Shown: in pieces, positions 7,332-64,000 of the stretch
How the letters are laid out: each line of letters opens with the position of its first letter
Position numbering within the stretch: the stretch's first letter is position 1
Source: Tubulanus polymorphus
Taxonomy: Eukaryota; Animalia; Nemertea
Direction of reading: 5' to 3'
Length of the DNA stretch: 64,000 nt
Assembly: GCF_964204645.1 (NCBI RefSeq)
Contig: NC_134027.1
Coordinates: 22,344,560 to 22,408,559 of the forward strand
Notes under the pieces: generated by a model
Databases searched by the model: none
What the model was told of the DNA's origin: nothing
Seen by the model: only the letters and a program-made list of their open reading frames with translations
Made by a program: the position numbers and the translations under genes

Positions 7332-8683
7332 CTACAAAGTACAACGACATTTAGAACATTGAATAAAACCAATCCTCCCTCGACAGGGATCGAACCTGAT
7401 GGCATCGAGACTCGCCACGGAACGATACATTTCTACACTACATGCGCAGCTTAGGCGATGTCATTATTAACCAAGCAGAAATCCTATTGCATCTCAGCCT
7501 AGGTTTTCCTTTTATAGTCCTTGAAATCTGCCAAAGGCGATTATGCAACAAGCAATCTCATCGGTGCCGCAAGTCGTTTTTTGTGCGGCAAACCTGCGCA
7601 TGCACCTGCGCACCCGGTCTAGTGTGGCAGGGATTCGTTCCGTGGCTGAGTGAAATGAAACTAAACAATTTGATGGTGTAATTTGTGGCCATTGTTTCTG
7701 TGCTGGACCTTGTTCGGTTATAGATGTAAACACTATATATCTTAAATCAGTTCTATTTCGAATGGCAGGGACAGGATGATCCTTTTTTTAGGTACGTACA
7801 TGTTCTGACTAGTGCACGCTATCCTGCTAGACGTATCGGCCCCACTCCACGCGGTTGCGCCACCGCGCGGGATTTACGCGAAGCAGCAGAACACACAAAC
7901 ATGGCCACTCTCTCAATTTTCAATGATAGAAATCGTGTGTGCATTTCAATTATTTCGGCTGTAAGGGTTTTAAGGCACAATATAAGTTGATGATGTGATA
8001 TGGCGATGTTAGTTAATGATAATTCCGCAGTGAAGCTAGTCACGAACGGTGCCGATTGAGCGTACAGCTGCCAAAAACACTGAAATGTGCGTAGTTGCGT
8101 AACTATTTGCAGTGAATTGCAGACGAAACATGAAGCCTTAACGGCCGTTTAAAAAAAAATTTATACCAATCCCAATTGTAAAATAAAAATGAGATAGAAC
8201 CTAAGTTAAAATTCTGGCCATTTCTAAAATGTTATTACTAATTTTTAAGTTTAATAGTCAGTTAATTTAATAGTCAGTGCGGAACGTTTAGTTTTCCAAC
8301 AATAATGAGGGGTGGTAGGTAGTCATGAAATTCAAGTCATCATTTATTACACGTTACTTCCGTGTTGTTGAAAATCTCGTGAGTCCTGGACCAAACCCCA
8401 ATGAACAATGTGATTTGTGTGCTGGCCACAAATGCACACAGATCACACTACACTACCCATTACACACTCCAGTACCCCCAGCTTTCATATATCCATCTAA
8501 ATATTTAGTGTCTTTCTTCCTGGATTTAATTCGTATATGTTTAGTTATGGATTTTGTCTTATCAATTACCGATTCTTTTACAAGTACACACATTTATAGT
8601 TCATGGATGAACGTGGAGTACTTCACAAAAAGACTCTTGGTAATCATTATATTCAAAGGTACCAGTACCTACGACATCATCAT

Positions 8684-8893
8684 TTCAGGTGGTCATTTTT
8701 TTCTGCGTGTAAAAATGGCCGAGAAGTACAGATATTCATTTTCTATTCATGCCTTTCATTGATTTTTGTCCTTTCCAGCTAGCCATTTTTGCTGCCGTGG
8801 ACCAATCACGCAGTAGAAAATATATATTTAGGTTTATCATTTCTCTCAATGGCGGCCATTTTTCTTTTTACGCAGAAAAACGGCCGCCAGAAA
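8684..8893. mobile_element. MITE-like inverted-repeat element (mirror ~62600-62809)
   Basis: TTTCAGGTGGTCATTTTTTTCTGCGT...AAAATGGCCG pairs with CGGCCATTTT...ACGCAGAAAAACGGCCGCCAGAAA. Confidence 0.5.
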
Positions 8894-8965
8894 GAAACAA
8901 TCGTAAAATGATCTTTTAAAGAATAATACCGTAAGTAGCTACAACAGAAATGCGGGCGTACTTAC

Positions 8966-9268
8966 TTGCGTTCGTATCGACGAATAACAACGTCTCCCAT
9001 TCTTTGAGTCAGGCGCTGGGCAGTGTTCAGTCCAAAGTATGCACTGCGACGAGACGTAAGAAAACGACTGGCAATGCTCCGTTTTGGAACAACGGTTAGC
9101 GCATTCAACTTTGCTTCTGGTCGCCAACGATGCCAGTTGTGCAGACCCTCCTGATTCCGGCTGCGACGCCACGAGCTTATACGACGACGTCACACCGTCG
9201 ATGCTAATCACCGAAGTGGATTGCAGTAACACGGCTACATTAATCATCATAAGTTCCATTGCTTTCAT
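8966..9268 (-). CDS. Exon 1 (signal peptide + PAN/apple domain) of PAN + hemopexin-like gene
   Basis: Hydrophobic leader MKAMELMMINVAVLLQSTSVIS; PAN pattern SKVECANRCSKTEHCQSFSYVSSQCIL; perfect donor CAA|GTAAGT (phase 0). Confidence 0.8.
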
Positions 9269-9460
9269 TTTTTCCACCGAAAAACCAGTCCGGGTATAGT
9301 CGAAGCGCACAGAGTTGAATCGGCGTTTTCGACAAAAAAATGACTAAAGAATTCAAACTAAAGTTATTCAGCGTACTTTTTCGATCCAACTTTATGGTTT
9401 AAGTCCGACGACTCAATTTTTCAACTCTCCAACCGGCTCCAGCGGTTTGATTAATAACTT

Positions 9461-9575
9461 GGGCCGGGTTTTGTAGACCGGTTTAGACAATGAATCGGCG
9501 GCTAACTCGAACTAGTTGAAAGTTTATCGAGTTAACCCCGGGTTAAAGTTAATACCAGTCTATAAAACGTGCCCC
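9461..9575. mobile_element. MITE, same family as 6961-7073 (mirror ~61918-62032)
   Basis: GGGCCGGGTTTTGTAGACCGGT...CCCCGGGTTAAAGTTAATACCAGTCTATAAAACGTGCCC. Confidence 0.6.
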
Positions 9576-11027
9576 TGGTGTTTGAATAGGATTGACATTG
9601 GAATGCATCGACATCCTCATCAGCCTATGTAATTCTTGGTTGTCGTGTTTTGTTACGTACATGAAATGCGTGCGCGCGACATTGGCGAATTATTTCGGAG
9701 AATATTGTTCCCAAGAATAAAGTATAAGCCTGCGTGACGATTAGATAGCGTTCGAAACATGGACGCCGATGAACTTCACGGCCCATTTTTAGCGATCCAT
9801 TAAACACGGATGAACTTTAAAGAGAAAATTAGTTAGATGCAAATAGACTAATACGATGATGGTGCCCAACACGCGATGCGCTAGTAACACGAAGCATTGT
9901 TCCCCGCAAGGATTATTCATCGCATTAACAGCTTCTAAACCGCCTTAAATCCACAAAACTTGGAATAATTAATGGATCGAATTAGAATTTGTCACACGAG
10001 TTCTTTTCATTAACTTCAGCGGTTCGGTGTAAGTTGATCAAAATGAAGTGTTCGAGGTTATCGATTATTTTAAACCTCTTATGTGTGTAGTACATGAACT
10101 GGATCATCGGCCTGGCATATCTTACTATATGTGACTACTTGAGACATAACGTACCAAATAATGGATTATACGAAAAATCAAATTCCTTTTAAGAACATTC
10201 ACTGAAAATTCGCCAGAAAAAGATATGGGGCCAATTGCTCAAAAGCTGGTTAGAGTTAACTAGTGGATATATTACATAATTGAAATTTACCCTTTACTAT
10301 AGTATTTATCCAACCGTTATCTTTAACCTAACTTTGAGGAGCTCTTGAATAAGAAAAATAATGGAAAAAATGTAGTTTTCTGTTGGTAAAGCAAATTTCG
10401 ATGTTTTTATCATTCCCCGATTAATCTTTTTATTATGTGGATAGAGAGCTAGCGCCAAATCATAACATCTTTTTGACATGTACAAAAGTTGATATGAAAG
10501 ATTTTAGACACGTCAAAGCTTTTTTAAATATTAGTATGGGTGAAGTAACAATCATTTCTATTGCTTTTTTAAAGTTCATACCACGTTTTAAAACAACTTC
10601 TACCATGTTGCTAATTGGTCAGGTTTTCCAATAAATTCATTGAATTAAAGCATCACTCCCTACAGTCAGCCTTTGTGAGGAGTCAACATCGTTTGTTAAA
10701 GGACTACTGAACAATTTTGTTTTTTTCCCTTGAATCAATCCAGTAAGATGTAATAAATGATAATCTAATGACCTTAGGTATATTTGTTTTCATTTCGAAT
10801 ACTTTTAAGAGGTTTTTTCTTGCTACGGCAAACCAAAATATACGTAGTCGCGATGCTCAGCAATCTCGGGTAATCCCCTGTGGTGACGTCAGCGCGAGAT
10901 GTTGAGAACCCGGAAGTATTATCAGCCTCGTTCAGATTGCGATAACAACAGGAGATAAAGTGATTATAAAAAGATTTTAAAACGATTTTAAACTATGCCA
11001 CGGCGTTGTGTGTACTACAATTGTGAC

Positions 11028-11161
11028 TTATTTGCTATTTTGCAGAAAACCCCTCTGCAATTCTCATGATTATTCTTTACTACGGTACTATGCATCTTCT
11101 AATCTTTGAAAGTCTCCGAGGAACCAATTTCAACAATAATGGTCGATCGCCACGATGAAAT
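11028..11161 (+). repeat. 134-bp direct repeat of the GPCR 3' flank (identical to 12620-12753)
   Basis: TTATTTGCTATTTTGCAGAAAACCCC...CGCCACGATGAAAT occurs at both positions, 1592 bp apart. Confidence 0.95.
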
Positions 11162-11621
11162 TGCATTTTGTGGAACTGGATGCAGAATTAGATTAAACCC
11201 AAGCAACATGGAAGTAAAGTGAATTCAGAGACAAATTGAACCCGTGAATACATAGTAAAATCATTAACTAAACTTATACAACTGTGGACTTTGCTCACAA
11301 TCTATATCAAATTTGATAACATCATATCCTATCAAACCGGATTCAGAATTTCTTCATGTGAAATTCTTTACCGTATGCTTTTTGGCAAGATTCTAAAATG
11401 CTGCCCCTATTAATTTCTCCCATGACGCCATTATCTCAGAGCTCAACAAACTCTGAAATAGAGGATCATTCTGGAAGTATATATTGAATACTACGCTTTC
11501 TCTTGTCTATAATTTTTAAGGAAGCGCATCGGGTAGTTTATAATTCTCAACACTCTACAATGTATAATCAAATTCTTTTCGAGTACCATAGACGTGTTCC
11601 AGCATCGCGCACTCGTCAGTG

Positions 11622-12602
11622 ATGTTAAAGGCTTCAGTTGTGCTGAAATGTTTCCCCCACGATCGCGTCATTTGGAATATTATCGCAGTAACTGTCGTAG
11701 GACCGATTGGTTGGTTTGGTCTTGTTTCCAACTCAGTTACTATTATCGTGCTTTATCGGCTGCATAAAAGGAGTACCCTCGCGACTTCGTATTTTGTCTT
11801 GTTGTTACTGGCCTTTTTTGACATTGTCTGTTGCATCGCCGCCATTATTTACAACCATTTCGTTTGGGTTTTGAAACTTATTCGCCACGGAAAGACCGGA
11901 CTGTATTTAGACGTGGGTTTGGGAGCCCCTGAGCTTTATATAGCGGGTAATCTAATCTCAAAATGGGGTTCTTACGTTCGGAACGGCCTGACGCTTTTAG
12001 TGACGTTCGATCGAGCATTTAACATTTGTTTTCCGCTCAAAGCTAAACGATATTGGAAGTTAAAACATTGTTATATACTTTCTGCGGTTTGTGTAATCAT
12101 GTGGACTGGCTTGATTTCTTACCGCGCGCAGGATCGAATTGTTGCGTACGTCAACACGACATGTACGTACGGCTCGTCTATCCGCGATGCAAAAACAGTT
12201 TCCAGTGCTCCCACGTATTCGTATTTGTTAGAAAACATATCCACGACGTATTTACCGTTCGCACTTATCCCACTACTGAATACGATTATGATAATTCAAC
12301 TACGAATTCACGCTAAAAATAGGAAACAACTGACCGGCGCCGACTCGACTAAACAAACTAAACAAGAGGGAACCGGCAACAGAATGGTATTTGTTGCATC
12401 CGCCTTATTCATGGTGTCTGTTTTTCCAGAAATGGCATTCAATATTCTGATCACATCCTTTTCATGGGCTGTCATCTGGCCGGTTTTACTTTTGAATGAC
12501 ATTTTTCAAGCCCTAAATTCGTCTGTGAACGGTATATTTTATTATGTGTACAGTAAAAACTTTCGACAAGAAATGAAGTCGTTGCGCTATCGAAGTACAT
12601 AG
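11622..12602 (+). CDS. Single-exon class A GPCR (family B, copy 1), 326 aa from ATG
   Basis: TM1 GWFGLVSN, TM2 LAFFD, TM3 TFDRAFNICFPL, TM7 NSSVNGIFYYVYSKNFR. The ORF track starts at GTG 11619; the first ATG is 11622. Confidence 0.92.
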   Translation: MLKASVVLKCFPHDRVIWNIIAVTVVGPIGWFGLVSNSVTIIVLYRLHKRSTLATSYFVLLLLAFFDIVCCIAAIIYNHFVWVLKLIRHGKTGLYLDVGLGAPELYIAGNLISKWGSYVRNGLTLLVTFDRAFNICFPLKAKRYWKLKHCYILSAVCVIMWTGLISYRAQDRIVAYVNTTCTYGSSIRDAKTVSSAPTYSYLLENISTTYLPFALIPLLNTIMIIQLRIHAKNRKQLTGADSTKQTKQEGTGNRMVFVASALFMVSVFPEMAFNILITSFSWAVIWPVLLLNDIFQALNSSVNGIFYYVYSKNFRQEMKSLRYRST

Positions 12603-12877
12603 TTTGATGTTCATTAGGGTTATTTGCTATTTTGCAGAAAACCCCTCTGCAATTCTCATGATTATTCTTTACTACGGTACTATGCATCTTCTAATCTTTG
12701 AAAGTCTCCGAGGAACCAATTTCAACAATAATGGTCGATCGCCACGATGAAATGAACTTCACAAGAACTAATTATAGTTGCAATGTTAAGAAACTGATTT
12801 TATTGAAACCTTCACTAGAGGGCGGTATACCACAAACACCATTAGCTAACACTATAGATAGCTCAATAAAAAATAAA

Positions 12878-13094
12878 CAGGGTGTCCCAAAAACGTGTTA
12901 CCGTAGGTTTAAGATTAGTTGTTCATTATTATTGAAAAAAAGAAATTTGGGAGGTAAGGTAACGGTAAGGGTAAGGGGGTAGGACCTGGGTGTTCGCTCG
13001 AGGATGAAATTTTGATGTGCAAAAGAGTCATGCACGGCTAAGCCCTAAATAATTAATTCTAAAAATTGGGTAACACATTTTCTGAGACACCCTG
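12878..13094. mobile_element. Tc1/mariner-type MITE (CAGGGTGTC termini)
   Basis: CAGGGTGTCCCAAAAACGTGTTACC ... GGTAACACATTTTCTGAGACACCCTG followed by TA. Split halves recur at 26913-27085 and (inverted) 25191-25259. Confidence 0.7.
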
Positions 13095-15648
13095 TATGAG
13101 TTCAAGGATTCTAATCAAAGTCCAGCAGCTCCGATCCGAGACGCCATTTTGTATTCAGTCAGCGGAGCAAGAATGGGGTGGCTCCGCAAATAAACAAATC
13201 AATTTAAATCATTTGAAACTTTTTTGGTCATTTTGTTTACAAATACGCATCAGATTGCATATACTAGATTTCTAGCCACGGAAAACTCGGATTGCTAATA
13301 GCTGTTTAATTTAGCAAAAGGCAATGTGTTTTACACTTGATCGCTATATGGTCTTAAATCCCCGTTTCCTGTAATCGTTCAACTAATTCTCTATTAGGTC
13401 AATAAAATCCGATTGTCATCTATTGCAACAATGAAACATTTTATCATTGAAATCAACGTAAAACCTTAGCTGTCGGGTGGAAATAATCATCCGTTACTTT
13501 ATCAACGACAAAATGGATAGATGACAACACCAACTCGATTGTTCAACTAACTTTTCCTTTTTTGCGATTTTCTTACAGGATCATGAGAAGTATTTGCAAA
13601 AACTATGGTTTTCCTTGGATAACCTACAGAAGGTGTCACGGTGACAGAGGATGCTGACGAACTGCGACCTGCTGGCTGGGTATAATGATATATAATCCAT
13701 ATTCAAGCTTCGCTAGACGAATACATTCAATTCTTACAAAGGAACGCTGTAAAACCCGGGCAGTTATCAACACAATATTATCATCCATAAAGCCTTTCCA
13801 AGCCTGTACAAATCATTCTATAGCATTCAAAAACATATACGAACCGAGGGCTCAATCAAAATAAAGACTTGAAATCTGCAAAAGCCGAAAATACAGTTTT
13901 AATGTTCAAAATGCGCCCCACCTCATAGAGAAGGCAAACCGGGGGGAAATCCATTCTAGCATGCCAATATACTGCACTTGCCTCTGTTGACTTATTCACC
14001 AAAAAATGTCTCGTGTTTTTCGATCGAAATTTAATTCTTATGAAGAAATTATTTTCACTCACGAATATTTTTCTGTGGAAATTTTTATGACGATTTCATT
14101 TTTTTGTCAGGAAACATTTTCACGGCCCTTATCAGCCACTATACTTTTCACTACAGAATGTGTATAGGCTCCATACGTCGACGTTGAATCTACAAAAGCT
14201 CTTATTCGATATCGAAAAAGCCCGAACAACGCGCAGATAAAGTTTGTCTTTACAAATCTTAACAAGACAATTTATAATCGATACAAGATACACTATTTGG
14301 CACCTCGACAACATGTACATTAGATTGAGCCACAGGCACTTGTCTTATATAATGGGTTTTGACCTTGCTGACGTGATAAATTTTACCGTAATCTACGATA
14401 AAAAATTCACCGGGTTCGCGCCATCTTAGTTATCTATGATGCAACTGTTTTACCCACGATCCAATGCGCCCCCTTTCATTTATCTATAATATAGGCCCAC
14501 AGAGAGGTAAGAAACGACCCTTAAACTTCTCCGTATAACAACATAATTGGATTGCGGGGTTTCGCGATCTGCCAATGACGACAAATGTAAACATAACCAC
14601 GTGCATCGCGCTCATGCGCAATACGAACATGAAAACAAAAACTCTCGTTAGCGCCGAACCTAATTTGAATATTCAAATTCAACCGACAGCGAATAAAAAA
14701 ATTGGCTTTTCCCCATTGATTATTTCAACGAAAGCCAGCTAGACCTTCAAATTGTGGATGGAACGAAATCAGCAAATTCATTCTAGTCGTCACATACGTA
14801 CGGAAGCGTCCTTGGTCACTGGCGTTCTAGTGTGCGCTATCGTCCGCACACTACCCATATACACATTAAACTATTGACTCTACAAAGTTGATGAGATGTC
14901 CAAACGTGACTGGGCCAACTACAAATATATAGAGTCGACCGGATGCCTTGAAGTTAACCCTTCAATCGATCACCTGATAATCTTGTCGTTTCCGGATTCC
15001 CCATTTTGGCGAGATGGTTTAGTTACTGAGTGGAACCGTGCGGTGAAGAAGAAACACATTTTATTAACTACACCAACCCGTTTCAACTGTAGATGGATGG
15101 AGCCCCACAATCGAATTTCAATCGGCAAAATTTATTAAAAACATGACCACAAAATTTCGGCTGTTGACGAAACGATATCATCAGTTGGAATGACTTGAAG
15201 CAGACAAACTCCACATCGACCTAGCCAAGAGAAACGCATTTTTGAAATCGAATTAACCAAAAAGGGTTTAGACTAGGACACAAGGCTTTTTCCTCTATCC
15301 CGCTCCCCCGTACTGTTCATTTTTACCAAATATTGAAAGCCCCCCCCCCCCCAACAGGTACGTATCAATTGAACAATAGAACTCAGAAACAACTGCCTTT
15401 GAGAACTCCTAGGTACTGGCCCGTGTATTCTTGTTTATATTCAATTTACGCAGTTACATTCACATTTCGCACGATATAGACTTTTATAAAAGTGAATTGA
15501 GTGAATTGCAATGGATCATCTTCATTGGCTGCAAACTGCAAACAATAAATCTAACAAATTAATTTTAGCTACGTGTTGGATTGAATTGAAAGTTACAGTG
15601 GCGTATCAGATATCATGTAAATGATATTATATAGTTATATAGTTATGA

Positions 15649-15855
<207 letters not shown>

Positions 15856-16440
15856 AGTTCGATGCATTTCAATTAATTTCATACACAAAGTGAAATTGGA
15901 TTCGTGCAAATTCGCAGTTCTTCTACCGATTAATGGCCACCATCAACCAGTGAAGAATTTTGCCATCGATAAGCTTTTATGCTTAGTATGTTTTTTCTTT
16001 TTGAAACTTGGCCGAGTGTGTCGTAATCTGAGTTGGGGGGATTTGCTATTTTTTATAAGTCTAGATTTGTTTCTGTTAGTCTCCCTTATCATCTCATTTT
16101 ATAGAACAAATTGCTATGTTGTGATGTCTTGTAGAATGCGGCAAACTGGCAGAAGTTCCAATCGAGACGCTATACGTGCTGCATTCTACGGAGTCGGAGA
16201 TATGGTAAATGTGTGAAATACGCTCTGCAACTCATTTGGTCGGTTTTCGAATACAGGTCTAGCTATTGGACTGCAACCTTCACCTTGTAGACATGCCAAA
16301 CCGGGGGAAAATCCATTTAAACGCGCCATTATACTTCACCCGCCTCTTTGACTTATTCACCAATAAAAATGCCTGGTGATGTTCCGTATCCAGGACTAGT
16401 TAGTTCATCCCGGCATCATCTAATAACCGAAACTGCTGAA

Positions 16441-19045
16441 ATGCAATTGAAATTTGTATATTTTACATTTTTGCTGAAAATCTGCGAATACACTCTTAGA
16501 ACAAATGGTTCTTCGGGGGTTCTTCGAAGAACCTTGGGGTTCTTGGTGAGGCTTTAAGGTGCTTCAACAATATGGAATGCAGATTGGGGTTCTTCGAGAC
16601 ATAAGGGTTCTTATAAGAACCCTAGAGTGGTCACAATTGTCAATTAAGAATTAAGTACACCTGCACCAGGGAATAATTAGTATAGCTGATGAATATAACT
16701 GATTTTCTATGTGGTGTAGGTTATATACAAAACATTTTGACTGGAAATTAGAATTGGGTTAACTTTGAAAACAATTTACTATGTATCATCACAATATCTT
16801 AGAATTGGTGACCGTGTGCGACAAGGATGCATTTTTTAAATTAATGAACCTTTATTTTAATTCGTCCTTTAAGATTTAAAAAGTCGTATGTTCAAAATGT
16901 GTGTTGAACGCCTTTAATGTGTGATAATTATATGTAGAGACTGAATAACTTGATTTGCTAGTCTGAGACATCGACTAGGTTTTATGGAGAGACGGCAGAG
17001 AAAAGAACAAATGCTTTTTAATGCTTTAAAAAAACAATTAAACTCTTCTAAACTCTAAGCGTTTCTGAATGGACTGTGCAGTTTAAAAAGAACTAGTAAA
17101 TTCAAAGTTCTAATGCAACTCAAAAATGAGAATTGTGTGTATTTTCGGCTCAATTTCTATCAAAACATTCAGTCGAAGTCATTGTACATTTTTTGTTGAA
17201 TAAAAACATAGAGTATAGTGGAAATTCAAAGTAACGTAATGCTTTGGGCCTAATAAGTATCATGCTATTGTAGTTCGTGCCTATAGGGCCATGTGTACAT
17301 GATCAGGCAATTATTCCTTTGTTCATGCAACTAACTGTTGTATAATTATCTGTCACCACGACTCATACAAACTTCGCTCAGTGCATAGTGCATATAGTAT
17401 ATCGACTTGTTCTTTTCGTTGTTTTGTAAGATGAATATCTGGAGCTTGGAAATGTGAATTAATTCTGGTAAGTAGTATTCAATGAATGTATATAACATTT
17501 GTGATATTTGAAATATATGAAATATAGGCCATAAAGCCGGAGTGACTCGGAATCGGATCAGTCATAACTATTATTTAAAACTTTCCCATTACTTTTGTAT
17601 TATAGAAATTGTTCCATGGAAGTTGACCATATTGTGAGACCGCGGTGCAAAAGATGTTTTTTCCAATCTCGGACCTAAGGCGGAAAGAATTAAAGAAATG
17701 GTACGAAGTCTGTACATTTGGCAATCGTGTCGCTTCCTTCCTTCGAAGTAGCGAAATTGCAGAAACAGGTTAGTAAATCTTGACTCAATGAGCCTTTACT
17801 GTGTGACTGTATTTTGGTAGAAGATAATCATTTTCAATCTACATATTCACTGGTTTTCAGATATGATGAGAACAGCAGAGCTTCACGTATTACCAGGGAT
17901 TTTGAGAGAAGATGCGAAAGACCTGAAAACCATTAAAAAGGTTCGTATTTTTCTGAATCTAATCACACTGTTAACTTTAACCGTTTGTCTTTTCTATTGA
18001 TAAATGTATTTGGAACTTATGCATGTAATACAAGAAAGTGTTTAGATTTACTTGCAGAGTGTGCATTATTGCAAAACATAATCGATTTTATTACACCATT
18101 AATTGTTCTCAATATTATTTATATTTCAGGAAATATACGACTATAATCCGGACGTTGCGGTTGAAAGGTTGCGAGGGTGGCAGCGCGTTGAAACAAACTT
18201 ATTTAGAAGATGGCTTATAGTTAATTGAAAGTGGACAGATTCTTAATAAGCGGAGTGGCCTGCCATAAGTCGGCCTATTATACGTTTAGCATATCATCTT
18301 ACATCTTATCCCACTTCCTCAATCTTATTGTACATGTAACCAATTAGTGAAACTATTTTTGTATCATTTATTGTAAACATATTTATCATTAATATTTCAA
18401 TTCATGAGATTTTATAATAAAAAGGTTTATATGATATAAATTTTAAGCGATTCTTATCATCAGTTTTTTTATCCACATGAGGATTAAGGGAGCAGTCAAA
18501 CATAACAGAGGATGGACAAATCATGAACAGCTTGAGCAGTCAAAAAATGAATGAGGAACCCTAAAAATAAATTACCTTTAAATGGCTCTCCCAAGAACCC
18601 TGTCAAGAACCATTTGATAATATTGAAAGGGTTCTAACAAGAACCCTTTATACGAAATGGTTCTTCAAAGAACCTTTACCAGGGGTTCTTCAAGGAACCC
18701 TGCAAAAAAGGTTCTTTGAAGAACCTTTAGGGGTTCTCCCTGGGAGGCAAGCCCAAGAACCCCTAAAGGTTCTACGGTAGAACCCTTTGTTCTAAGAGTG
18801 TATTTCGAAACGTGCTCGGTATATTTCGCAGAAGTAGCGACCAGAGGAAACGATTACTCGATAGATGGACCGTATCTGTCTATTGATAAGAATTCAGCCT
18901 CTTTGATCAGTTGCAGCGCCGCGTGTTCACTGGATACTAAATGCAAATCGTTCAATTATCACGGAGATTCCAGCGTTTGCAATTGAGTGACAAGTTTCCA
19001 ACTGGTCCGACGTTCAGGCAGAGAAATGGCACAGCATTTAGATAC
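16441..19045 (+). pseudogene. PAN-exon pseudogene interrupted by a DNA transposon
   Basis: MQLKFVYFTFLLKICE at 16441 resumes as YFETCSVYFAEVATRG... at 18801. Carries a 1-bp deletion (tgcaattg vs tgcgaattg) and loses the splice donor at 19045. Paralog of 32667-32963. Confidence 0.9.
16491..18800. mobile_element. Non-autonomous CMC/EnSpm-like DNA transposon, 2310 bp
   Basis: TIR CACTCTTAGAACAAA(T/G)GGTTCT / AGAACCCTTTGTTCTAAGAGTG, TA duplicated on both sides, many subterminal GGTTCTT/AAGAACC repeats. The empty site is visible at ~32715. Confidence 0.88.
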
Positions 19046-19162
19046 ACGTTTTAAAACAACTTCTACCTGTTGCTAATTGGTCAGGTTTTCCAATAAATTC
19101 ATTGAATAAAAGCATCACTCCCTACAGTCAGCCTTTGTGAGGAGTCAAAATCGTTTGTAAAG

Positions 19163-20996: not shown

Positions 20997-21182
20997 AAAT
21001 GCATCAAACTTAAAATCAAGCAGAAACTGAAAACTATAAAGAAAATGAGCATTCAAATTATTCATATCTTTCGAATGAAATTTCAACAAAATACAGTTAA
21101 AATTTTAAGTATATATGATATATGCTTATAACATATGCGCTAAGTAACTGGCGTATCAGATATCAATATCGTAAGATCTACA

Positions 21183-50241: not shown

Positions 50242-50272
<31 letters not shown>

Positions 50273-50468
50273 ATATATAATATGTAGATCTTACGATATT
50301 GATATCTGATACGCCAGTTACTTAGCGCATATGTTATAAGCATATATCATATATACTTAAAATTTTAACTGTATTTTGTTGAAATTTCATTCGAAAGATA
50401 TGAATAATTTGAATGCTCATTTTCTTTATAGTTTTCAGTTTCTGCTTGATTTTAAGTTTGATGCATTT

Positions 50469-51824: not shown

Positions 51825-52419
51825 CAACTGAAGCGTTTAACATCACTGACGAGTGCGCGATGCTGGAACACGTCTATGATACTCGAAAAGGATTTGATTA
51901 TAGAGTGTTGAAAATTATATACTACCCGATGCGCTTCCTTAAAAACAATGATAGACAAGAGAAAGCGTAGTATTCAATATATACTTCCAGAATGATCCAC
52001 TAATTCAGAGTCTGTTGAGCTCTGAGATAATGGCGATGGAAGAAATTACATCAATTGATAGGGGCTGCATTTTATAATCTTGCCAAAAAGCATACAGAAT
52101 TTCACATGTAGAAATTCTAAATCCGATTTGATAGGATATGATGTTATCAAATTTCATATATATTGTGAGCAAGGTCCACCGTTGTATAAGTTTAGTTAAT
52201 GATTTTACTATGTATTCATGGGTTCAATTTGTCTCTGAATTCATTTTACTCCCATATTGCTTGGGTTTAATCTTATTCTGCATCCAGTTCCACAAAATGC
52301 AACTTTACAAACGATTTTGACTCCTCACAAAGGCTGACTGTAGGGAGTGATGCTTTTATTCAATGAATTTATTGGAAAACCTGACCAATTAGCAACAGGT
52401 AGAAGTTGTTTTAAAACGT

Positions 52420-55024
52420 GTATCTAAATGCTGTGCCATTTCTCTGCCTGAACGTCGGACCAGTTGGAAACTTGTCACTCAATTGCAAACGCTGGAATCT
52501 CCGTGATAATTGAACGATTTGCATTTAGTATCCAGTGAACACGCGGCGCTGCAACTGATCAAAGAGGCTGAATTCTTATCAATAGACAGATACGGTCCAT
52601 CTATCGAGTAATCGTTTCCTCTGGTCGCTACTTCTGCGAAATATACCGAGCACGTTTCGAAATACACTCTTAGAACAAAGGGTTCTACCGTAGAACCTTT
52701 AGGGGTTCTTGGGCTTGCCTCCCAGGGAGAACCCCTAAAGGTTCTTCAAAGAACCTTTTTTGCAGGGTTCCTTGAAGAACCCCTGGTAAAGGTTCTTTGA
52801 AGAACCATTTCGTATAAAGGGTTCTTGTTAGAACCCTTTCAATATTATCAAATGGTTCTTGACAGGGTTCTTGGGAGAGCCATTTAAAGGTAATTTATTT
52901 TTAGGGTTCCTCATTCATTTTTTGACTGCTCAAGCTGTTCATGATTTGTCCATCCTCTGTTATGTTTGACTGCTCCCTTAATCCTCATGTGGATAAAAAA
53001 ACTGATGATAAGAATCGCTTAAAATTTATATCATATAAACCTTTTTATTATAAAATCTCATGAATTGAAATATTAATGATAAATATGTTTACAATAAATG
53101 ATACAAAAATAGTTTCACTAATTGGTTACATGTACAATAAGATTGAGGAAGTGGGATAAGATGTAAGATGATATGCTAAACGTATAATAGGCCGACTTAT
53201 GGCAGGCCACTCCGCTTATTAAGAATCTGTCCACTTTCAATTAACTATAAGCCATCTTCTAAATAAGTTTGTTTCAACGCGCTGCCACCCTCGCAACCTT
53301 TCAACCGCAACGTCCGGATTATAGTCGTATATTTCCTGAAATATAAATAATATTGAGAACAATTAATGGTGTAATAAAATCGATTATGTTTTGCAATAAT
53401 GCACACTCTGCAAGTAAATCTAAACACTTTCTTGTATTACATGCATAAGTTCCAAATACATTTATCAATAGAAAAGACAAACGGTTAAAGTTAACAGTGT
53501 GATTAGATTCAGAAAAATACGAACCTTTTTAATGGTTTTCAGGTCTTTCGCATCTTCTCTCAAAATCCCTGGTAATACGTGAAGCTCTGCTGTTCTCATC
53601 ATATCTGAAAACCAGTGAATATGTAGATTGAAAATGATTATCTTCTACCAAAATACAGTCACACAGTAAAGGCTCATTGAGTCAAGATTTACTAACCTGT
53701 TTCTGCAATTTCGCTACTTCGAAGGAAGGAAGCGACACGATTGCCAAATGTACAGACTTCGTACCATTTCTTTAATTCTTTCCGCCTTAGGTCCGAGATT
53801 GGAAAAAACATCTTTTGCACCGCGGTCTCACAATATGGTCAACTTCCATGGAACAATTTCTATAATACAAAAGTAATGGGAAAGTTTTAAATAATAGTTA
53901 TGACTGATCCGATTCCGAGTCACTCCGGCTTTATGGCCTATATTTCATATATTTCAAATATCACAAATGTTATATACATTCATTGAATACTACTTACCAG
54001 AATTAATTCACATTTCCAAGCTCCAGATATTCATCTTACAAAACAACGAAAAGAACAAGTCGATATACTATATGCACTATGCACTGAGCGAAGTTTGTAT
54101 GAGTCGTGGTGACAGATAATTATACAACAGTTAGTTGCATGAACAAAGGAATAATTGCCTGATCATGTACACATGGCCCTATAGGCACGAACTACAATAG
54201 CATGATACTTATTAGGCCCAAAGCATTACGTTACTTTGAATTTCCACTATACTCTATGTTTTTATTCAACAAAAAATGTACAATGACTTCGACTGAATGT
54301 TTTGATAGAAATTGAGCCGAAAATACACACAATTCTCATTTTTGAGTTGCATTAGAACTTTGAATTTACTAGTTCTTTTTAAACTGCACAGTCCATTCAG
54401 AAACGCCTAGAGTTTAGAAGAGTTTAATTGTTTTTTTAAAGCATTAAAAAGCATTTGTTCTTTTCTCTGCCGTCTCTCCATAAAACCTAGTCGATGTCTC
54501 AGACTAGCAAATCAAGTTATTCAGTCTCTACATATAATTATCACACATTAAAGGCGTTCAACACACATTTTGAACATACGACTTTTTAAATCTTAAAGGA
54601 CGAATTAAAATAAAGGTTCATTAATTTAAAAAATGCATCCTTGTCGCACACGGTCACCAATTCTAAGATATTGTGATGATACATAGTAAATTGTTTTCAA
54701 AGTTAACCCAATTCTAATTTCCAGTCAAAATGTTTTGTATATAACCTACACCACATAGAAAATCAGTTATATTCATCAGCTATACTAATTATTCCCTGGT
54801 GCAGGTGTACTTAATTCTTAATTGACAATTGTGACCACTCTAGGGTTCTTATAAGAACCCTTATGTCTCGAAGAACCCCAATCTGCATTCCATATTGTTG
54901 AAGCACCTTAAAGCCTCACCAAGAACCCCAAGGTTCTTCGAAGAACCCCCGAAGAACCATTTGTTCTAAGAGTGTATTCGCAGATTTTCAGCAAAAATGT
55001 AAAATATACAAATTTCAATTGCAT
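52420..55024 (-). pseudogene. PAN-exon pseudogene (mirror)
   Basis: Reverse complement of 16441-19045. Confidence 0.9.
52665..54974. mobile_element. CMC/EnSpm-like element (mirror)
   Basis: TA-CACTCTTAGAACAAAG...TTGTTCTAAGAGTG-TA. Confidence 0.88.
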
Positions 55025-55633
55025 TTCAGCAGTTTCGGTTATTAGATGATGCCGGGATGAACTAACTAGTCCTGGATACGGAACATCACCAGGCATTTTT
55101 ATTGGTGAATAAGTCAAAGAGGCGGGTGAAGTATAATGGCGCGTTTAAATGGATTTTCCCCCGGTTTGGCATGTCTACAAGGTGAAGGTTGCAGTCCAAT
55201 AGCTAGACCTGTATTCGAAAACCGACCAAATGAGTTGCAGAGCGTATTTCACACATTTACCATATCTCCGACTCCGTAGAATGCAGCACGTATAGCGTCT
55301 CGATTGGAACTTCTGCCAGTTTGCCGCATTCTACAAGACATCACAACATAGCAATTTGTTCTATAAAATGAGATGATAAGGGAGACTAACAGAAACAAAT
55401 CTAGACTTATAAAAAATAGCAAATCCCCCCAACTCAGATTACGACACACTCGGCCAAGTTTCAAAAAGAAAAAACATACTAAGCATAAAAGCTTATCGAT
55501 GGCAAAATTCTTCACTGGTTGATGGTGGCCATTAATCGGTAGAAGAACTGCGAATTTGCACGAATCCAATTTCACTTTGTGTATGAAATTAATTGAAATG
55601 CATCGAACTTATATATATATATATATACATATT

Positions 55634-55846
<213 letters not shown>

Positions 55847-58800
55847 TCATAACTATATAACTATATAATATCATTTACATGATATCTGATACGCCACTGT
55901 AACTTTCAATTCAATCCAACACGTAGCTAAAATTAATTTGTTAGATTTATTGTTTGCAGTTTGCAGCCAATGAAGATGATCCATTGCAATTCACTCAATT
56001 CACTTTTATAAAAGTCTATATCGTGCGAAATGTGAATGTAACTGCGTAAATTGAATATAAACAAGAATACACGGGCCAGTACCTAGGAGTTCTCAAAGGC
56101 AGTTGTTTCTGAGTTCTATTGTTCAATTGATACGTACCTGTTGGGGGGGGGGGCTTTCAATATTTGGTAAAAATGAACAGTACGGGGGAGCGGGATAGAG
56201 GAAAAAGCCTTGTGTCCTAGTCTAAACCCTTTTTGGTTAATTCGATTTCAAAAATGCGTTTCTCTTGGCTAGGTCGATGTGGAGTTTGTCTGCTTCAAGT
56301 CATTCCAACTGATGATATCGTTTCGTCAACAGCCGAAATTTTGTGGTCATGTTTTTAATAAATTTTGCCGATTGAAATTCGATTGTGGGGCTCCATCCAT
56401 CTACAGTTGAAACGGGTTGGTGTAGTTAATAAAATGTGTTTCTTCTTCACCGCACGGTTCCACTCAGTAACTAAACCATCTCGCCAAAATGGGGAATCCG
56501 GAAACGACAAGATTATCAGGTGATCGATTGAAGGGTTAACTTCAAGGCATCCGGTCGACTCTATATATTTGTAGTTGGCCCAGTCACGTTTGGACATCTC
56601 ATCAACTTTGTAGAGTCAATAGTTTAATGTGTATATGGGTAGTGTGCGGACGATAGCGCACACTAGAACGCCAGTGACCAAGGACGCTTCCGTACGTATG
56701 TGACGACTAGAATGAATTTGCTGATTTCGTTCCATCCACAATTTGAAGGTCTAGCTGGCTTTCGTTGAAATAATCAATGGGGAAAAGCCAATTTTTTTAT
56801 TCGCTGTCGGTTGAATTTGAATATTCAAATTAGGTTCGGCGCTAACGAGAGTTTTTGTTTTCATGTTCGTATTGCGCATGAGCGCGATGCACGTGGTTAT
56901 GTTTACATTTGTCGTCATTGGCAGATCGCGAAACCCCGCAATCCAATTATGTTGTTATACGGAGAAGTTTAAGGGTCGTTTCTTACCTCTCTGTGGGCCT
57001 ATATTATAGATAAATGAAAGGGGGCGCATTGGATCGTGGGTAAAACAGTTGCATCATAGATAACTAAGATGGCGCGAACCCGGTGAATTTTTTATCGTAG
57101 ATTACGGTAAAATTTATCACGTCAGCAAGGTCAAAACCCATTATATAAGACAAGTGCCTGTGGCTCAATCTAATGTACATGTTGTCGAGGTGCCAAATAG
57201 TGTATCTTGTATCGATTATAAATTGTCTTGTTAAGATTTGTAAAGACAAACTTTATCTGCGCGTTGTTCGGGCTTTTTCGATATCGAATAAGAGCTTTTG
57301 TAGATTCAACGTCGACGTATGGAGCCTATACACATTCTGTAGTGAAAAGTATAGTGGCTGATAAGGGCCGTGAAAATGTTTCCTGACAAAAAAATGAAAT
57401 CGTCATAAAAATTTCCACAGAAAAATATTCGTGAGTGAAAATAATTTCTTCATAAGAATTAAATTTCGATCGAAAAACACGAGACATTTTTTGGTGAATA
57501 AGTCAACAGAGGCAAGTGCAGTATATTGGCATGCTAGAATGGATTTCCCCCCGGTTTGCCTTCTCTATGAGGTGGGGCGCATTTTGAACATTAAAACTGT
57601 ATTTTCGGCTTTTGCAGATTTCAAGTCTTTATTTTGATTGAGCCCTCGGTTCGTATATGTTTTTGAATGCTATAGAATGATTTGTACAGGCTTGGAAAGG
57701 CTTTATGGATGATAATATTGTGTTGATAACTGCCCGGGTTTTACAGCGTTCCTTTGTAAGAATTGAATGTATTCGTCTAGCGAAGCTTGAATATGGATTA
57801 TATATCATTATACCCAGCCAGCAGGTCGCAGTTCGTCAGCATCCTCTGTCACCGTGACACCTTCTGTAGGTTATCCAAGGAAAACCATAGTTTTTGCAAA
57901 TACTTCTCATGATCCTGTAAGAAAATCGCAAAAAAGGAAAAGTTAGTTGAACAATCGAGTTGGTGTTGTCATCTATCCATTTTGTCGTTGATAAAGTAAC
58001 GGATGATTATTTCCACCCGACAGCTAAGGTTTTGCGTTGATTTCAATGATAAAATGTTTCATTGTTGCAATAGATGACAATCGGATTTTATTGACCTAAT
58101 AGAGAATTAGTTGAACGATTACAGGAAACGGGGATTTAAGACCATATAGCGATCAAGTGTAAAACACATTGCCTTTTGCTAAATTAAACAGCTATTAGCA
58201 ATCCGAGTTTTCCGTGGCTAGAAATCTAGTATATGCAATCTGATGCGTATTTGTAAACAAAATGACCAAAAAAGTTTCAAATGATTTAAATTGATTTGTT
58301 TATTCGCGGAGCCACCCCATTCTTGCTCCGCTGACTGAATACAAAATGGCGTCTCGGATCGGAGCTGCTGGACTTTGATTAGAATCCTTGAACTCATACA
58401 GGGTGTCTCAGAAAATGTGTTACCCAATTTTTAGAATTAATTATTTAGGGCTTAGCCGTGCATGACTCTTTTGCACATCAAAATTTCATCCTCGAGCGAA
58501 CACCCAGGTCCTACCCCCTTACCCTTACCGTTACCTTACCTCCCAAATTTCTTTTTTTCAATAATAATGAACAACTAATCTTAAACCTACGGTAACACGT
58601 TTTTGGGACACCCTGTTTATTTTTTATTGAGCTATCTATAGTGTTAGCTAATGGTGTTTGTGGTATACCGCCCTCTAGTGAAGGTTTCAATAAAATCAGT
58701 TTCTTAACATTGCAACTATAATTAGTTCTTGTGAAGTTCATTTCATCGTGGCGATCGACCATTATTGTTGAAATTGGTTCCTCGGAGACTTTCAAAGATT

Positions 58801-58890
58801 AGAAGATGCATAGTACCGTAGTAAAGAATAATCATGAGAATTGCAGAGGGGTTTTCTGCAAAATAGCAAATAACCCTAATGAACATCAAA

Positions 58891-59871
58891 CTATGTACTT
58901 CGATAGCGCAACGACTTCATTTCTTGTCGAAAGTTTTTACTGTACACATAATAAAATATACCGTTCACAGACGAATTTAGGGCTTGAAAAATGTCATTCA
59001 AAAGTAAAACCGGCCAGATGACAGCCCATGAAAAGGATGTGATCAGAATATTGAATGCCATTTCTGGAAAAACAGACACCATGAATAAGGCGGATGCAAC
59101 AAATACCATTCTGTTGCCGGTTCCCTCTTGTTTAGTTTGTTTAGTCGAGTCGGCGCCGGTCAGTTGTTTCCTATTTTTAGCGTGAATTCGTAGTTGAATT
59201 ATCATAATCGTATTCAGTAGTGGGATAAGTGCGAACGGTAAATACGTCGTGGATATGTTTTCTAACAAATACGAATACGTGGGAGCACTGGAAACTGTTT
59301 TTGCATCGCGGATAGACGAGCCGTACGTACATGTCGTGTTGACGTACGCAACAATTCGATCCTGCGCGCGGTAAGAAATCAAGCCAGTCCACATGATTAC
59401 ACAAACCGCAGAAAGTATATAACAATGTTTTAACTTCCAATATCGTTTAGCTTTGAGCGGAAAACAAATGTTAAATGCTCGATCGAACGTCACTAAAAGC
59501 GTCAGGCCGTTCCGAACGTAAGAACCCCATTTTGAGATTAGATTACCCGCTATATAAAGCTCAGGGGCTCCCAAACCCACGTCTAAATACAGTCCGGTCT
59601 TTCCGTGGCGAATAAGTTTCAAAACCCAAACGAAATGGTTGTAAATAATGGCGGCGATGCAACAGACAATGTCAAAAAAGGCCAGTAACAACAAGACAAA
59701 ATACGAAGTCGCGAGGGTACTCCTTTTATGCAGCCGATAAAGCACGATAATAGTAACTGAGTTGGAAACAAGACCAAACCAACCAATCGGTCCTACGACA
59801 GTTACTGCGATAATATTCCAAATGACGCGATCGTGGGGGAAACATTTCAGCACAACTGAAGCCTTTAACAT
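58891..59871 (-). CDS. Class A GPCR family B copy 1 (mirror)
   Basis: Protein identical to 11622-12602. Confidence 0.92.
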   Translation of the reverse strand: MLKASVVLKCFPHDRVIWNIIAVTVVGPIGWFGLVSNSVTIIVLYRLHKRSTLATSYFVLLLLAFFDIVCCIAAIIYNHFVWVLKLIRHGKTGLYLDVGLGAPELYIAGNLISKWGSYVRNGLTLLVTFDRAFNICFPLKAKRYWKLKHCYILSAVCVIMWTGLISYRAQDRIVAYVNTTCTYGSSIRDAKTVSSAPTYSYLLENISTTYLPFALIPLLNTIMIIQLRIHAKNRKQLTGADSTKQTKQEGTGNRMVFVASALFMVSVFPEMAFNILITSFSWAVIWPVLLLNDIFQALNSSVNGIFYYVYSKNFRQEMKSLRYRST

Positions 59872-62224
59872 CACTGACGAGTGCGCGATGCTGGAACACG
59901 TCTATGGTACTCGAAAAGAATTTGATTATACATTGTAGAGTGTTGAGAATTATAAACTACCCGATGCGCTTCCTTAAAAATTATAGACAAGAGAAAGCGT
60001 AGTATTCAATATATACTTCCAGAATGATCCTCTATTTCAGAGTTTGTTGAGCTCTGAGATAATGGCGTCATGGGAGAAATTAATAGGGGCAGCATTTTAG
60101 AATCTTGCCAAAAAGCATACGGTAAAGAATTTCACATGAAGAAATTCTGAATCCGGTTTGATAGGATATGATGTTATCAAATTTGATATAGATTGTGAGC
60201 AAAGTCCACAGTTGTATAAGTTTAGTTAATGATTTTACTATGTATTCACGGGTTCAATTTGTCTCTGAATTCACTTTACTTCCATGTTGCTTGGGTTTAA
60301 TCTAATTCTGCATCCAGTTCCACAAAATGCAATTTCATCGTGGCGATCGACCATTATTGTTGAAATTGGTTCCTCGGAGACTTTCAAAGATTAGAAGATG
60401 CATAGTACCGTAGTAAAGAATAATCATGAGAATTGCAGAGGGGTTTTCTGCAAAATAGCAAATAAGTCACAATTGTAGTACACACAACGCCGTGGCATAG
60501 TTTAAAATCGTTTTAAAATCTTTTTATAATCACTTTATCTCCTGTTGTTATCGCAATCTGAACGAGGCTGATAATACTTCCGGGTTCTCAACATCTCGCG
60601 CTGACGTCACCACAGGGGATTACCCGAGATTGCTGAGCATCGCGACTACGTATATTTTGGTTTGCCGTAGCAAGAAAAAACCTCTTAAAAGTATTCGAAA
60701 TGAAAACAAATATACCTAAGGTCATTAGATTATCATTTATTACATCTTACTGGATTGATTCAAGGGAAAAAAACAAAATTGTTCAGTAGTCCTTTAACAA
60801 ACGATGTTGACTCCTCACAAAGGCTGACTGTAGGGAGTGATGCTTTAATTCAATGAATTTATTGGAAAACCTGACCAATTAGCAACATGGTAGAAGTTGT
60901 TTTAAAACGTGGTATGAACTTTAAAAAAGCAATAGAAATGATTGTTACTTCACCCATACTAATATTTAAAAAAGCTTTGACGTGTCTAAAATCTTTCATA
61001 TCAACTTTTGTACATGTCAAAAAGATGTTATGATTTGGCGCTAGCTCTCTATCCACATAATAAAAAGATTAATCGGGGAATGATAAAAACATCGAAATTT
61101 GCTTTACCAACAGAAAACTACATTTTTTCCATTATTTTTCTTATTCAAGAGCTCCTCAAAGTTAGGTTAAAGATAACGGTTGGATAAATACTATAGTAAA
61201 GGGTAAATTTCAATTATGTAATATATCCACTAGTTAACTCTAACCAGCTTTTGAGCAATTGGCCCCATATCTTTTTCTGGCGAATTTTCAGTGAATGTTC
61301 TTAAAAGGAATTTGATTTTTCGTATAATCCATTATTTGGTACGTTATGTCTCAAGTAGTCACATATAGTAAGATATGCCAGGCCGATGATCCAGTTCATG
61401 TACTACACACATAGGAGGTTTAAAATAATCGATAACCTCGAACACTTCATTTTGATCAACTTACACCGAACCGCTGAAGTTAATGAAAAGAACTCGTGTG
61501 ACAAATTCTAATTCGATCCATTAATTATTCCAAGTTTTGTGGATTTAAGGCGGTTTAGAAGCTGTTAATGCGATGAATAATCCTTGCGGGGAACAATGCT
61601 TCGTGTTACTAGCGCATCGCGTGTTGGGCACCATCATCGTATTAGTCTATTTGCATCTAACTAATTTTCTCTTTAAAGTTCATCCGTGTTTAATGGATCG
61701 CTAAAAATGGGCCGTGAAGTTCATCGGCGTCCATGTTTCGAACGCTATCTAATCGTCACGCAGGCTTATACTTTATTCTTGGGAACAATATTCTCCGAAA
61801 TAATTCGCCAATGTCGCGCGCACGCATTTCATGTACGTAACAAAACACGACAACCAAGAATTACATAGGCTGATGAGGATGTCGATGCATTCCAATGTCA
61901 ATCCTATTCAAACACCAGGGGCACGTTTTATAGACTGGTATTAACTTTAACCCGGGGTTAACTCGATAAACTTTCAACTAGTTCGAGTTAGCCGCCGATT
62001 CATTGTCTAAACCGGTCTACAAAACCCGGCCCAAGTTATTAATCAAACCGCTGGAGCCGGTTGGAGAGTTGAAAAATTGAGTCGTCGGACTTAAACCATA
62101 AAGTTGGATCGAAAAAGTACGCTGAATAACTTTAGTTTGAATTCTTTAGTCATTTTTTTGTCGAAAACGCCGATTCAACTCTGTGCGCTTCGACTATACC
62201 CGGACTGGTTTTTCGGTGGAAAAA

Positions 62225-62527
62225 ATGAAAGCAATGGAACTTATGATGATCAATGTAGCCGTGTTACTGCAATCCACTTCGGTGATTAGCATCGACGGTG
62301 TGACGTCGTCGTATAAGCTCGTGGCGTCGCAGCCGGAATCAGGAGGGTCTGCACAACTGGCATCGTTGGCGACCAGAAGCAAAGTTGAATGCGCTAACCG
62401 TTGTTCCAAAACGGAGCATTGCCAGTCGTTTTCTTACGTCTCGTCGCAGTGCATACTTTGGACTGAACACTGCCCAGCGCCTGACTCAAAGAATGGGAGA
62501 CGTTGTTATTCGTCGATACGAACGCAA
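62225..62527 (+). CDS. Exon 1 (signal peptide + PAN) of mirror PAN + hemopexin-like gene; exon 2 would start at ~64162, outside the window
   Basis: Mirror of 8966-9268 with donor CAA|GTAAGT; one synonymous difference (Ile codon). Confidence 0.75.
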
Positions 62528-64000
62528 GTAAGTACGCCCGCATTTCTGTTGTAGCTACTTACGGTATTATTCTTTAAAAGATCATTTTACGATTGTTTCT
62601 TTCTGGCGGCCGTTTTTCTGCGTAAAAAGAAAAATGGCCGCCATTGAGAGAAATGATAAACCTAAATATATATTTTCTACTGCGTGATTGGTCCACGGCA
62701 GCAAAAATGGCTAGCTGGAAAGGACAAAAATCAATGAAAGGCATGAATAGAAAATGAATATCTGTACTTCTCGGCCATTTTTACACGCAGAAAAAAATGA
62801 CCACCTGAAATGATGATGTCGTAGGTACTGGTACCTTTGAATATAATGATTACCAAGAGTCTTTTTGTGAAGTACTCCACGTTCATCCATGAACTATAAA
62901 TGTGTGTACTTGTAAAAGAATCGGTAATTGATAAGACAAAATCCATAACTAAACATATACGAATTAAATCCAGGAAGAAAGACACTAAATATTTAGATGG
63001 ATATATGAAAGCTGGGGGTACTGGAGTGTGTAATGGGTAGTGTAGTGTGATCTGTGTGCATTTGTGGCCAGCACACAGATCACATTGTTCATTGGGGTTT
63101 GGTCCAGGACTCACGAGATTTTCAACAACACGGAAGTAACGTGTAATAAATGATGACTTGAATTTCATGACTACCTACCACCCCTCATTATTGTTGGAAA
63201 ACTAAACGTTCCGCACTGACTATTAAATTAACTGACTATTAAACTTAAAAATTAGTAATAACATTTTAGAAATGGCCAGAATTTTAACTTAGGTTCTATC
63301 TCATTTTTATTTTACAATTGGGATTGGTATAAATTTTTTTTTAAACGGCCGTTAAGGCTTCATGTTTCGTCTGCAATTCACTGCAAATAGTTACGCAACT
63401 ACGCACATTTCAGTGTTTTTGGCAGCTGTACGCTCAATCGGCACCGTTCGTGACTAGCTTCACTGCGGAATTATCATTAACTAACATCGCCATATCACAT
63501 CATCAACTTATATTGTGCCTTAAAACCCTTACAGCCGAAATAATTGAAATGCACACACGATTTCTATCATTGAAAATTGAGAGAGTGGCCATGTTTGTGT
63601 GTTCTGCTGCTTCGCGTAAATCCCGCGCGGTGGCGCAACCGCGTGGAGTGGGGCCGATACGTCTAGCAGGATAGCGTGCACTAGTCAGAACATGTACGTA
63701 CCTAAAAAAAGGATCATCCTGTCCCTGCCATTCGAAATAGAACTGATTTAAGATATATAGTGTTTACATCTATAACCGAACAAGGTCCAGCACAGAAACA
63801 ATGGCCACAAATTACACCATCAAATTGTTTAGTTTCATTTCACTCAGCCACGGAACGAATCCCTGCCACACTAGACCGGGTGCGCAGGTGCATGCGCAGG
63901 TTTGCCGCACAAAAAACGACTTGCGGCACCGATGAGATTGCTTGTTGCATAATCGCCTTTGGCAGATTTCAAGGACTATAAAAGGAAAACCTAGGCTGAG

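Follow-up and report, generated by a model that had tools for sequence, protein, structure and literature searches.

A 64,000-nucleotide stretch of the genome of the nemertean Tubulanus polymorphus (assembly GCF_964204645.1, contig NC_134027.1, positions 22,344,560 to 22,408,559 of the forward strand; hereafter the window, within which all coordinates are given) contains a giant near-perfect palindrome whose arms carry three genes for G-protein-coupled receptors (GPCRs). In our view, the palindrome is probably the real and recent product of a fold-back inverted duplication that affected one chromosome copy, doubled the three GPCR genes, and likely truncated a gene encoding PAN and GON domains. 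The duplication is likely specific to the individual.

Arms, spacer, and junction polarity

Self-BLAST of the window returns two inverted matches on the minus strand, 7493-21300 against 64000-50166 (99.71% identity) and 21257-34701 against 50283-36833 (99.84%). Each arm is at least 27.2 kb long, the outer end at 7493 being fixed by the window end alone, and the arms are 99.97% identical by substitutions alone or 99.7-99.8% identical when microsatellite gaps are included; the mirror structure is real, far beyond chance. An earlier reading made from the letters alone (the sequence-only reading) had described arms of at least 27 kb around a 2.1-kb spacer, and both self-BLAST and a MAFFT alignment of the arms bear this out. 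The alignment recovers exactly the eight substitutions that had been listed (8415, 9242, 10079, 13188, 13459, 17058, 27831, and 29504), along with one 4-bp indel (31288/40250) and the reported changes in run length, for C at 15340 (2), 31112 (7), and 31584 (1) and for TA at ~15747 (30) and 21241 (81). The GPCR, PAN, and transposable-element proteins had also been called identical between arms, and all 7 open reading frames (ORFs) compared do give the same protein, the single nucleotide difference among them (9242, in the PAN gene) being silent. The parts of the palindrome are as follows.

7493..34701, no strand: left arm, apparently the new, inverted copy; outer end beyond the window
34702..36832, no strand: spacer of 2,131 bp, not duplicated; native DNA of the PAN-GON gene (intron and exon)
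36833..64000, no strand: right arm, apparently the native copy; extends past the window
34698..34709, no strand: putative new (fold-back) junction; arm end GGAT, four extra bases (34702-34705), then ATCC, forming a 4-bp stem with a 4-nt loop
36832..36835, no strand: native junction, within PAN-GON intron 1; a GATC site, missing from the left junction

Which of the two junctions is new appears to be fixed by a GON exon in the spacer that the sequence-only reading had overlooked. The sole match for the PAN exon is P0010, a 329-amino-acid PAN + GON protein of T. polymorphus. On the minus strand, its residues 4-100 align to the right arm at 38861-38571 (88% identity; PAN_1 scores above its cut-off in the mirror exon) and its residues 142-227 align to the spacer at 35821-35564 (69%); for the last ~100 residues (228-329), nothing better than an E value of 1.1 was found anywhere in the window.

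38571..38867, minus strand: PAN-GON exon 1 (predicted signal peptide + PAN), native copy; 88% to P0010
35561..35823, minus strand: exon encoding the N-terminal half of the GON domain, flanked by an AG acceptor and a GT donor; GON above cut-off
32667..32963, plus strand: orphan mirror copy of PAN exon 1, whose intron enters the spacer in antisense

Across 36833/36832, the PAN exon is followed on the minus strand by the GON exon, in the same order as in P0010, which points to the left junction (34701/34706, with four extra bases) as the new one; the right arm together with the spacer would then preserve the native gene order, with 36832/36833 falling in an intron. The opposite assignment, in which the right junction is the new one, is reversed by this exon order. 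The sequence-only reading had held that both junctions need proof; this stands for 34701/34702 but not for 36832/36833, which the PAN-GON order makes native intron. The new junction lies ~850 bp into the intron after the GON exon (intron 2) and separates the last exon or exons from the gene, and the duplication thus likely truncated it.

Sequencing depth, contig ends, and arm alleles

Of ten sequencing runs, four include all or some of the stretch and come from a single study; the runs examined were X1, X2, X3, and X5. X1 is probably from the source animal and not independent of the assembly (six of its eight listed records carry no other letters, and two look like paralogs); X2 and X3 are from one sample and cover 63% and 54% of the sequence words, respectively; X5 is raw Illumina data from another study and a different individual.

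In X1, an arm contig ends at 34701 and a spacer contig begins at 34706. Because these breaks lie at both edges of the four extra bases, a short link contig is implied, and the bin at 34640-34804 holds 1,405 depth-bases beyond the listed records, as an unlisted short link would give. The native junction, by comparison, is spanned by a record (36327-36862, with a 30-base overlap) that is unbroken at 36832. Depth in X1 is 26.1, 26.2, and 28.4 on the arm, falls to 18.4 on the spacer at 34706-35627, and reaches 14.6 and 14.1 in the 3′ spacer, for a length-weighted arm-to-spacer ratio of 1.63 (1.84 against the 3′ spacer). In X5, arm depth is 6.9 and spacer depth 8.9 (ratio of 0.77, from 7 of the 16 bins on the arm and 7 of the 12 on the spacer, after dropping bins inflated by repeats or paralogs and the segment 36620-36784, where X5 depth is ~1), so that this one other individual shows no doubling; no joint at the new junction is present among the X5 joints listed (two more are unlisted). 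Fixed differences of X5 amount to ~0.6-0.8% in unique stretches, ~20-30 times the arm-to-arm value of 0.03%. The depth step and contig breaks in X1, the undoubled X5, and full-length nemertean homologs of the receptors together lend support to the proposal of the sequence-only reading that a very recent inverted amplicon has doubled three intact GPCRs in an invertebrate.

In X2 and X3, the arm contig runs 13 loose letters beyond 34701, which is what the native GATC site at 36832-36835 would lead one to expect, and comparator records end with 10 to 12 loose letters, five of six of which fit a 12-letter linker at GATC. These runs look like linker-based proximity-ligation libraries, and we discarded their depth as a test of copy number.

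Allele reading covered 57950-63200, with four of the eight substitutions and the indels outside this interval or unreadable (site 63078 lies in a high-copy element). At every arm-difference site covered by a listed contig that carries no other letters, the right-arm allele is present (58305, 61414, and 62251 in X1; 61414 and 62251 in X2 and X3), one X1 record over 58034 carries one unplaced difference, and X5, at a depth of ~4, has no row at 62251 among the rows listed. The left-arm alleles are neither confirmed nor refuted, as contigs drop minor alleles. In all 7 transitions (8415-29504), the left arm carries A/T and the right arm G/C (P = 0.016, post hoc), without strand coordination, a pattern that the sequence-only reading had missed. 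Paralogs within the window agree with the left-arm allele at 13188 and 13459, so that polarity is mixed or unclear; an origin of the transitions as A:T-to-G:C polymerase errors in the right arm is rejected by the presence of the right-arm allele in X1, X2, and X3 at 61414 and 62251 and in X1 at 58305.

Farther out on the arm, X1 depth on 60858-62999 rises to 51.1 and 55.1, twice that of the proximal arm, and further near-identical copies of the distal arm therefore exist. The region of an Srw-type receptor at 57950-60400 (mirror, ~11100-13540) is almost without X5 reads at 97% likeness, while X1 has several near-identical copies of it, with depth of 57-140 in most bins, which amounts to strong copy or sequence polymorphism between individuals and suggests presence/absence or hyperdivergent haplotypes at the receptor. 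The X5 flanks 1 kb from this region are ~99% alike.

Two local departures concern the introns of the PAN-GON gene. An X1 contig skips 303 bp at 33181-33485, so a related copy lacks this segment, which is probably an insertion in the PAN-GON intron; X5 nearly lacks ~200 bp of PAN-GON intron at 36620-36832 at 90% likeness (depth of ~1 or less).

Proposed fold-back mechanism and competing explanations

The fold-back duplication most likely arose as follows. DNA synthesis proceeding down the minus strand would have stopped in intron 2 at ~34706 (at a break or a stalled fork), four bases would have been added, perhaps from a look-alike sequence or a short snap-back, and synthesis would have been reprimed 2.1 kb upstream on the opposite strand and continued backward for at least 27 kb. 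The likeness of the arms would then reflect a recent event rather than upkeep by conversion, and, given the distal-arm copies elsewhere, the event may be a single step of a larger amplification. Its effect would be to raise the dosage of the putative chemoreceptors while sacrificing one PAN-GON member of a multicopy family.

31562..31574, plus strand: candidate template for the four extra bases, sharing 13 bp with the sequence that spans the new junction

Matches of at least 13 bp occur in 6 of 300 random cores, and a 4-bp stem such as that at the new junction occurs at 1.9% of sites. No TTAGGG arrays are present within the window.

By analogy, the closest kind appears to be the fold-back inverted duplication with a short disomic spacer described in humans by Hermetz et al. 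(2014, PMC3907307; here and below, cited papers are represented by parts of their text), in which spacers range from 766 to 70,466 bp (median, 3,428) and junctions show 2 to 8 bp of inverted microhomology in 13 of 21 cases and insertions in 5 of 21. Like those cases, the worm palindrome has inverted arms that are long and nearly identical, a new junction opposite a native one, an unduplicated spacer (2,131 bp in the worm, with X1 depth under that of the arm), and an apparent short insertion at the new junction. The human cases adjoin terminal deletions, translocations, or rings, whereas the far end of this palindrome is beyond the window, and the worm differs further in its lack of visible microhomology, its extra distal copies, and its wild invertebrate carrier. 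Inverted triplications (human DUP-TRP/INV-DUP, PMC11293582; Aspergillus TRP/INV, bioRxiv 10.1101/2025.01.14.632981) also involve an inverted copy made through template switching, a short palindrome where the segments join, and copy number that changes in steps, but the window shows no more than one new junction. Primate X/Y palindromes (Jackson et al. 2021, PMC8327919) similarly have gene-bearing arms longer than 8 kb with over 99% identity and a spacer range (77 bp to 358 kb) into which this one fits; unlike what is described for them, the present structure gives no sign of conservation across individuals or species, sex linkage, or testis-biased genes and is apparently young and gene breaking. 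The conserved inverted gene pairs of Caenorhabditis (Zhao et al. 2007, PMC1803023) are gene-bearing inverted repeats in an invertebrate, with one or two genes per arm and occurrence in more than one species for the examples consulted, whereas the arms here exceed 27 kb and are apparently polymorphic. Lophotrochozoa have lineage-specific expansions of class A GPCRs in clusters, with significantly large sets in nemerteans (~2,352 in Notospermus; PMC11886862), and the receptors of the window are likewise clustered and lineage specific; what the consulted parts of that paper describe is tandem clustering, without a palindromic or junction-level mechanism. Among the papers listed in searches of open-licence text (supplements excluded), we found none on such a structure in nemerteans.

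Several observations weigh against the fold-back duplication as we describe it. The assembly may itself have been built from X1, for which no library type is recorded; a contig over 34701-34706 is not among the records listed (24 of 564) and is inferred only. The sequence-only reading had proposed an arm depth about twice that of the spacer as a check, and while the arm does stand above the spacer in X1, the ratio of 1.63 falls between 2:1 and 3:2 and is not a clean 2:1. For X2 and X3, the records listed include no contig over the new junction, the bin residual is ~0, the arm contig continues into the native GATC rather than into the new junction, and these gappy runs show no 2:1 depth step (X2 arm, 22-33; spacer, 18-38). 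X5 depth is ~1 or less at 36620-36920, confirming neither junction. Left-arm alleles occur in no contig with certainty, and for that reason the arm differences are not proof of reality; the argument of the sequence-only reading that transitions and microsatellite differences favor a real duplication accordingly finds no support in contigs that show the right-arm allele only (three sites in X1 and two each in X2 and X3). In the gene itself, the obvious PAN donor is in phase 0 and the GON acceptor in phase 1 (the phases would agree only with a GT lying 4 nt beyond this donor or with an additional small exon not seen here), and residues 101-141 of P0010 have no match in the window, which makes the exon chain given above provisional. 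Finally, inverted microhomology was looked for at the new junction and none is visible, the four extra bases are read from contig ends, and both the template match and the stem are post hoc with a chance of ~2% each, making them leads rather than proof.

The palindrome would be false if one haplotype kept the arm, the spacer in its native direction, and the remainder of the gene, a heterozygous rearrangement joined the arm to an inverted piece of the spacer on the second haplotype, and the assembler switched haplotype within the spacer. We regard this scenario, the principal rival of the artefact type, as unlikely. It accounts for the X1 breaks at 34701 and 34706 without a third copy, for an arm depth of 26 (two haplotypes) beside 14 in the 3′ spacer, and for the eight arm differences as ordinary heterozygous sites, but it expects a depth near 26 on 34706-35627, where 18.4 was measured, and requires haplotypes that are 99.97% alike over 27 kb when the other individual differs by 0.6-0.8%. 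In a version where the whole spacer is inverted, a branch at 36832 and equal depths are expected, and neither was found; the simple form of this version is excluded by the unbroken X1 record over 36832 and the unequal depths. Somewhat less probable again is a larger inverted triplication or multistep amplification, in which a third, native arm plus spacer, in cis or on the homolog, reaches the intact end of the PAN-GON gene, although this is more an extension of the fold-back explanation than an alternative to it. That a second path meets the spacer at 34706, that the ratio of 1.63 is close to 3:2 and the distal depth (51-55) is twice that of the proximal arm, and that contigs hold the right-arm allele, as a 2-to-1 majority would, all agree with it, but depth in the 3′ spacer (14.1 and 14.6) is half that of the arm, not two-thirds, the window contains no second junction, and the human DUP-TRP/INV-DUP kind takes long inverted repeats as its substrates (PMC11293582).

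We give very little credence to the possibility that the palindrome is ancient, perhaps lies on a sex chromosome, and owes the likeness of its arms to gene conversion between them. Arm size and identity satisfy the primate definition (8 kb and 99%; PMC8327919), maintained inverted repeats are known in an invertebrate (PMC1803023), and the X1 spacer depth may be that of a single haplotype; yet the one other individual examined, X5, shows no doubling, the new junction appears to cut a gene, and we saw neither an ortholog with the same structure nor evidence of sex linkage. The suggestion in the sequence-only reading of a conversion-maintained, X/Y-like palindrome fares poorly on these grounds, as nothing ties the structure to a sex chromosome. 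A pure artefact, with a lone chimeric or fold-back read or an amplification chimera entering the assembly, is just as improbable. The unlisted link contig, its absence from X2 and X3, and the unrecorded library type of X1 would fit, but a lone read is not expected to break X1 contigs at both 34701 and 34706 or to lift arm depth over spacer depth. Logan contigs have single-count words removed. Fold-back artefact reads are virtually absent from HiFi data and make up ~0.6% of Oxford Nanopore Technologies reads of genomic DNA (PMC12870357).

If real, the fold-back duplication provides a base-level snapshot of receptor-cluster growth in a little-studied phylum, showing the junction, its direction, the gene broken, and the genes doubled, in a form polymorphic between individuals. 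It would serve as a marker, typable by polymerase chain reaction, for asking with what frequency lineage-specific GPCR expansions draw on inverted duplications and at what rate such palindromes decay or convert outside mammals. The mechanism is already known, and the gain is a new example rather than a new principle, along with a warning to assembly curators that mirror blocks of this kind need not be false duplications. Far more speculatively, and with a low probability in our estimation, the copy steps of ~1:2:4 along the arm, an Srw pair with many near-identical copies in one animal and almost none at 97% likeness in another, and private changes of the new arm that would be mostly G:C to A:T could mean that a wild worm has been caught amid stepwise fold-back amplification, possibly in a hemizygous or sex-linked block; inverted amplification would then be a live engine that, besides tandem crossing-over, builds the very large GPCR repertoires of nemerteans. 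To our knowledge, nemertean sex chromosomes have not been described.

Receptors, mobile elements, and older repeats

Pfam matches were obtained for 9 of the 13 ORFs scanned, and 8 exceed the curated cut-off: two Srw-type GPCRs, one 7tm_1 GPCR, two PAN, one GON, DUF5641, and GIY-YIG. Features of the arms and spacer other than those given above are as follows.

11622..12602, plus strand: Srw-type class A GPCR 1, 326 amino acids; mirror 58891-59871 (minus); PF10324, 33.8 bits (curated cut-off, 22.2)
21909..22859, minus strand: class A GPCR, 316 amino acids; mirror 48687-49637 (plus); 7tm_1, 57.1 bits
25657..26637, plus strand: Srw-type GPCR 2, 326 amino acids; mirror 44909-45889 (minus); PF10324, 35.0 bits; older direct duplicate of GPCR 1
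8939..9268, minus strand: another ORF with a PAN domain, perhaps a first exon; mirror 62225-62554 (plus); contains the silent difference 9242
18803..19046, plus strand: PAN exon 1, frameshifted third copy; 97% DNA identity to 32717-32961
19941..20312, plus strand: DUF5641 retrotransposon-type fragment (Pfam)
28299..28919, plus strand: GIY-YIG endonuclease ORF (Pfam), which we take to be Penelope-like
36221..36600, no strand: high-copy element in the spacer resembling a miniature inverted-repeat transposable element, with inverted ends; 72% inverted repeat, depth in the thousands, opposite-strand joints

The ORFs of both Srw-type receptors are full-length. Srw GPCR 1 is 54% identical, with 98% coverage, to P0012 of T. 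polymorphus (329 amino acids), the sole match returned, and the 7tm_1 receptor has P0001 as its best match (64% over 99%), with T. polymorphus proteins making up the top five of nine matches. Together with the PAN-exon match, these hits mark the animal as a likely palaeonemertean. From family membership and the lophotrochozoan survey (PMC11886862, in part), the three GPCRs have a putative chemosensory role. Between the two Srw paralogs, 18 codon differences change the amino acid and 7 are silent, a near-neutral ratio with which relaxed or diversifying selection is possible. The GPCR match P0002 and the PAN-GON match P0010 are on contigs of equal length and their locus numbers differ by 17, which suggests that the GPCR neighborhood is conserved.

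Older events are also visible within the arm: the Srw unit has a directly repeated copy (94-97%), and there are inverted blocks that are ~90% alike. The latter, 13026-15583 against 22948-25259 (84-90% identity, with more pieces at 29836-31220), end in C-runs beside TA arrays and represent a low-copy mobile element or else an inverted duplication of older date. Outside the visible arm, to its left, two GPCR ORFs, 2777-3463 (228 amino acids, without a Pfam match and maybe broken) and 4475-5599 (Pfam score under the cut-off), are 83% alike in DNA and may belong to the arm beyond the reach of the window. The same flank holds a 47-bp tandem array of 9.7 copies (5678-6134) and a long TTG/CTG-type microsatellite (1234-1612).

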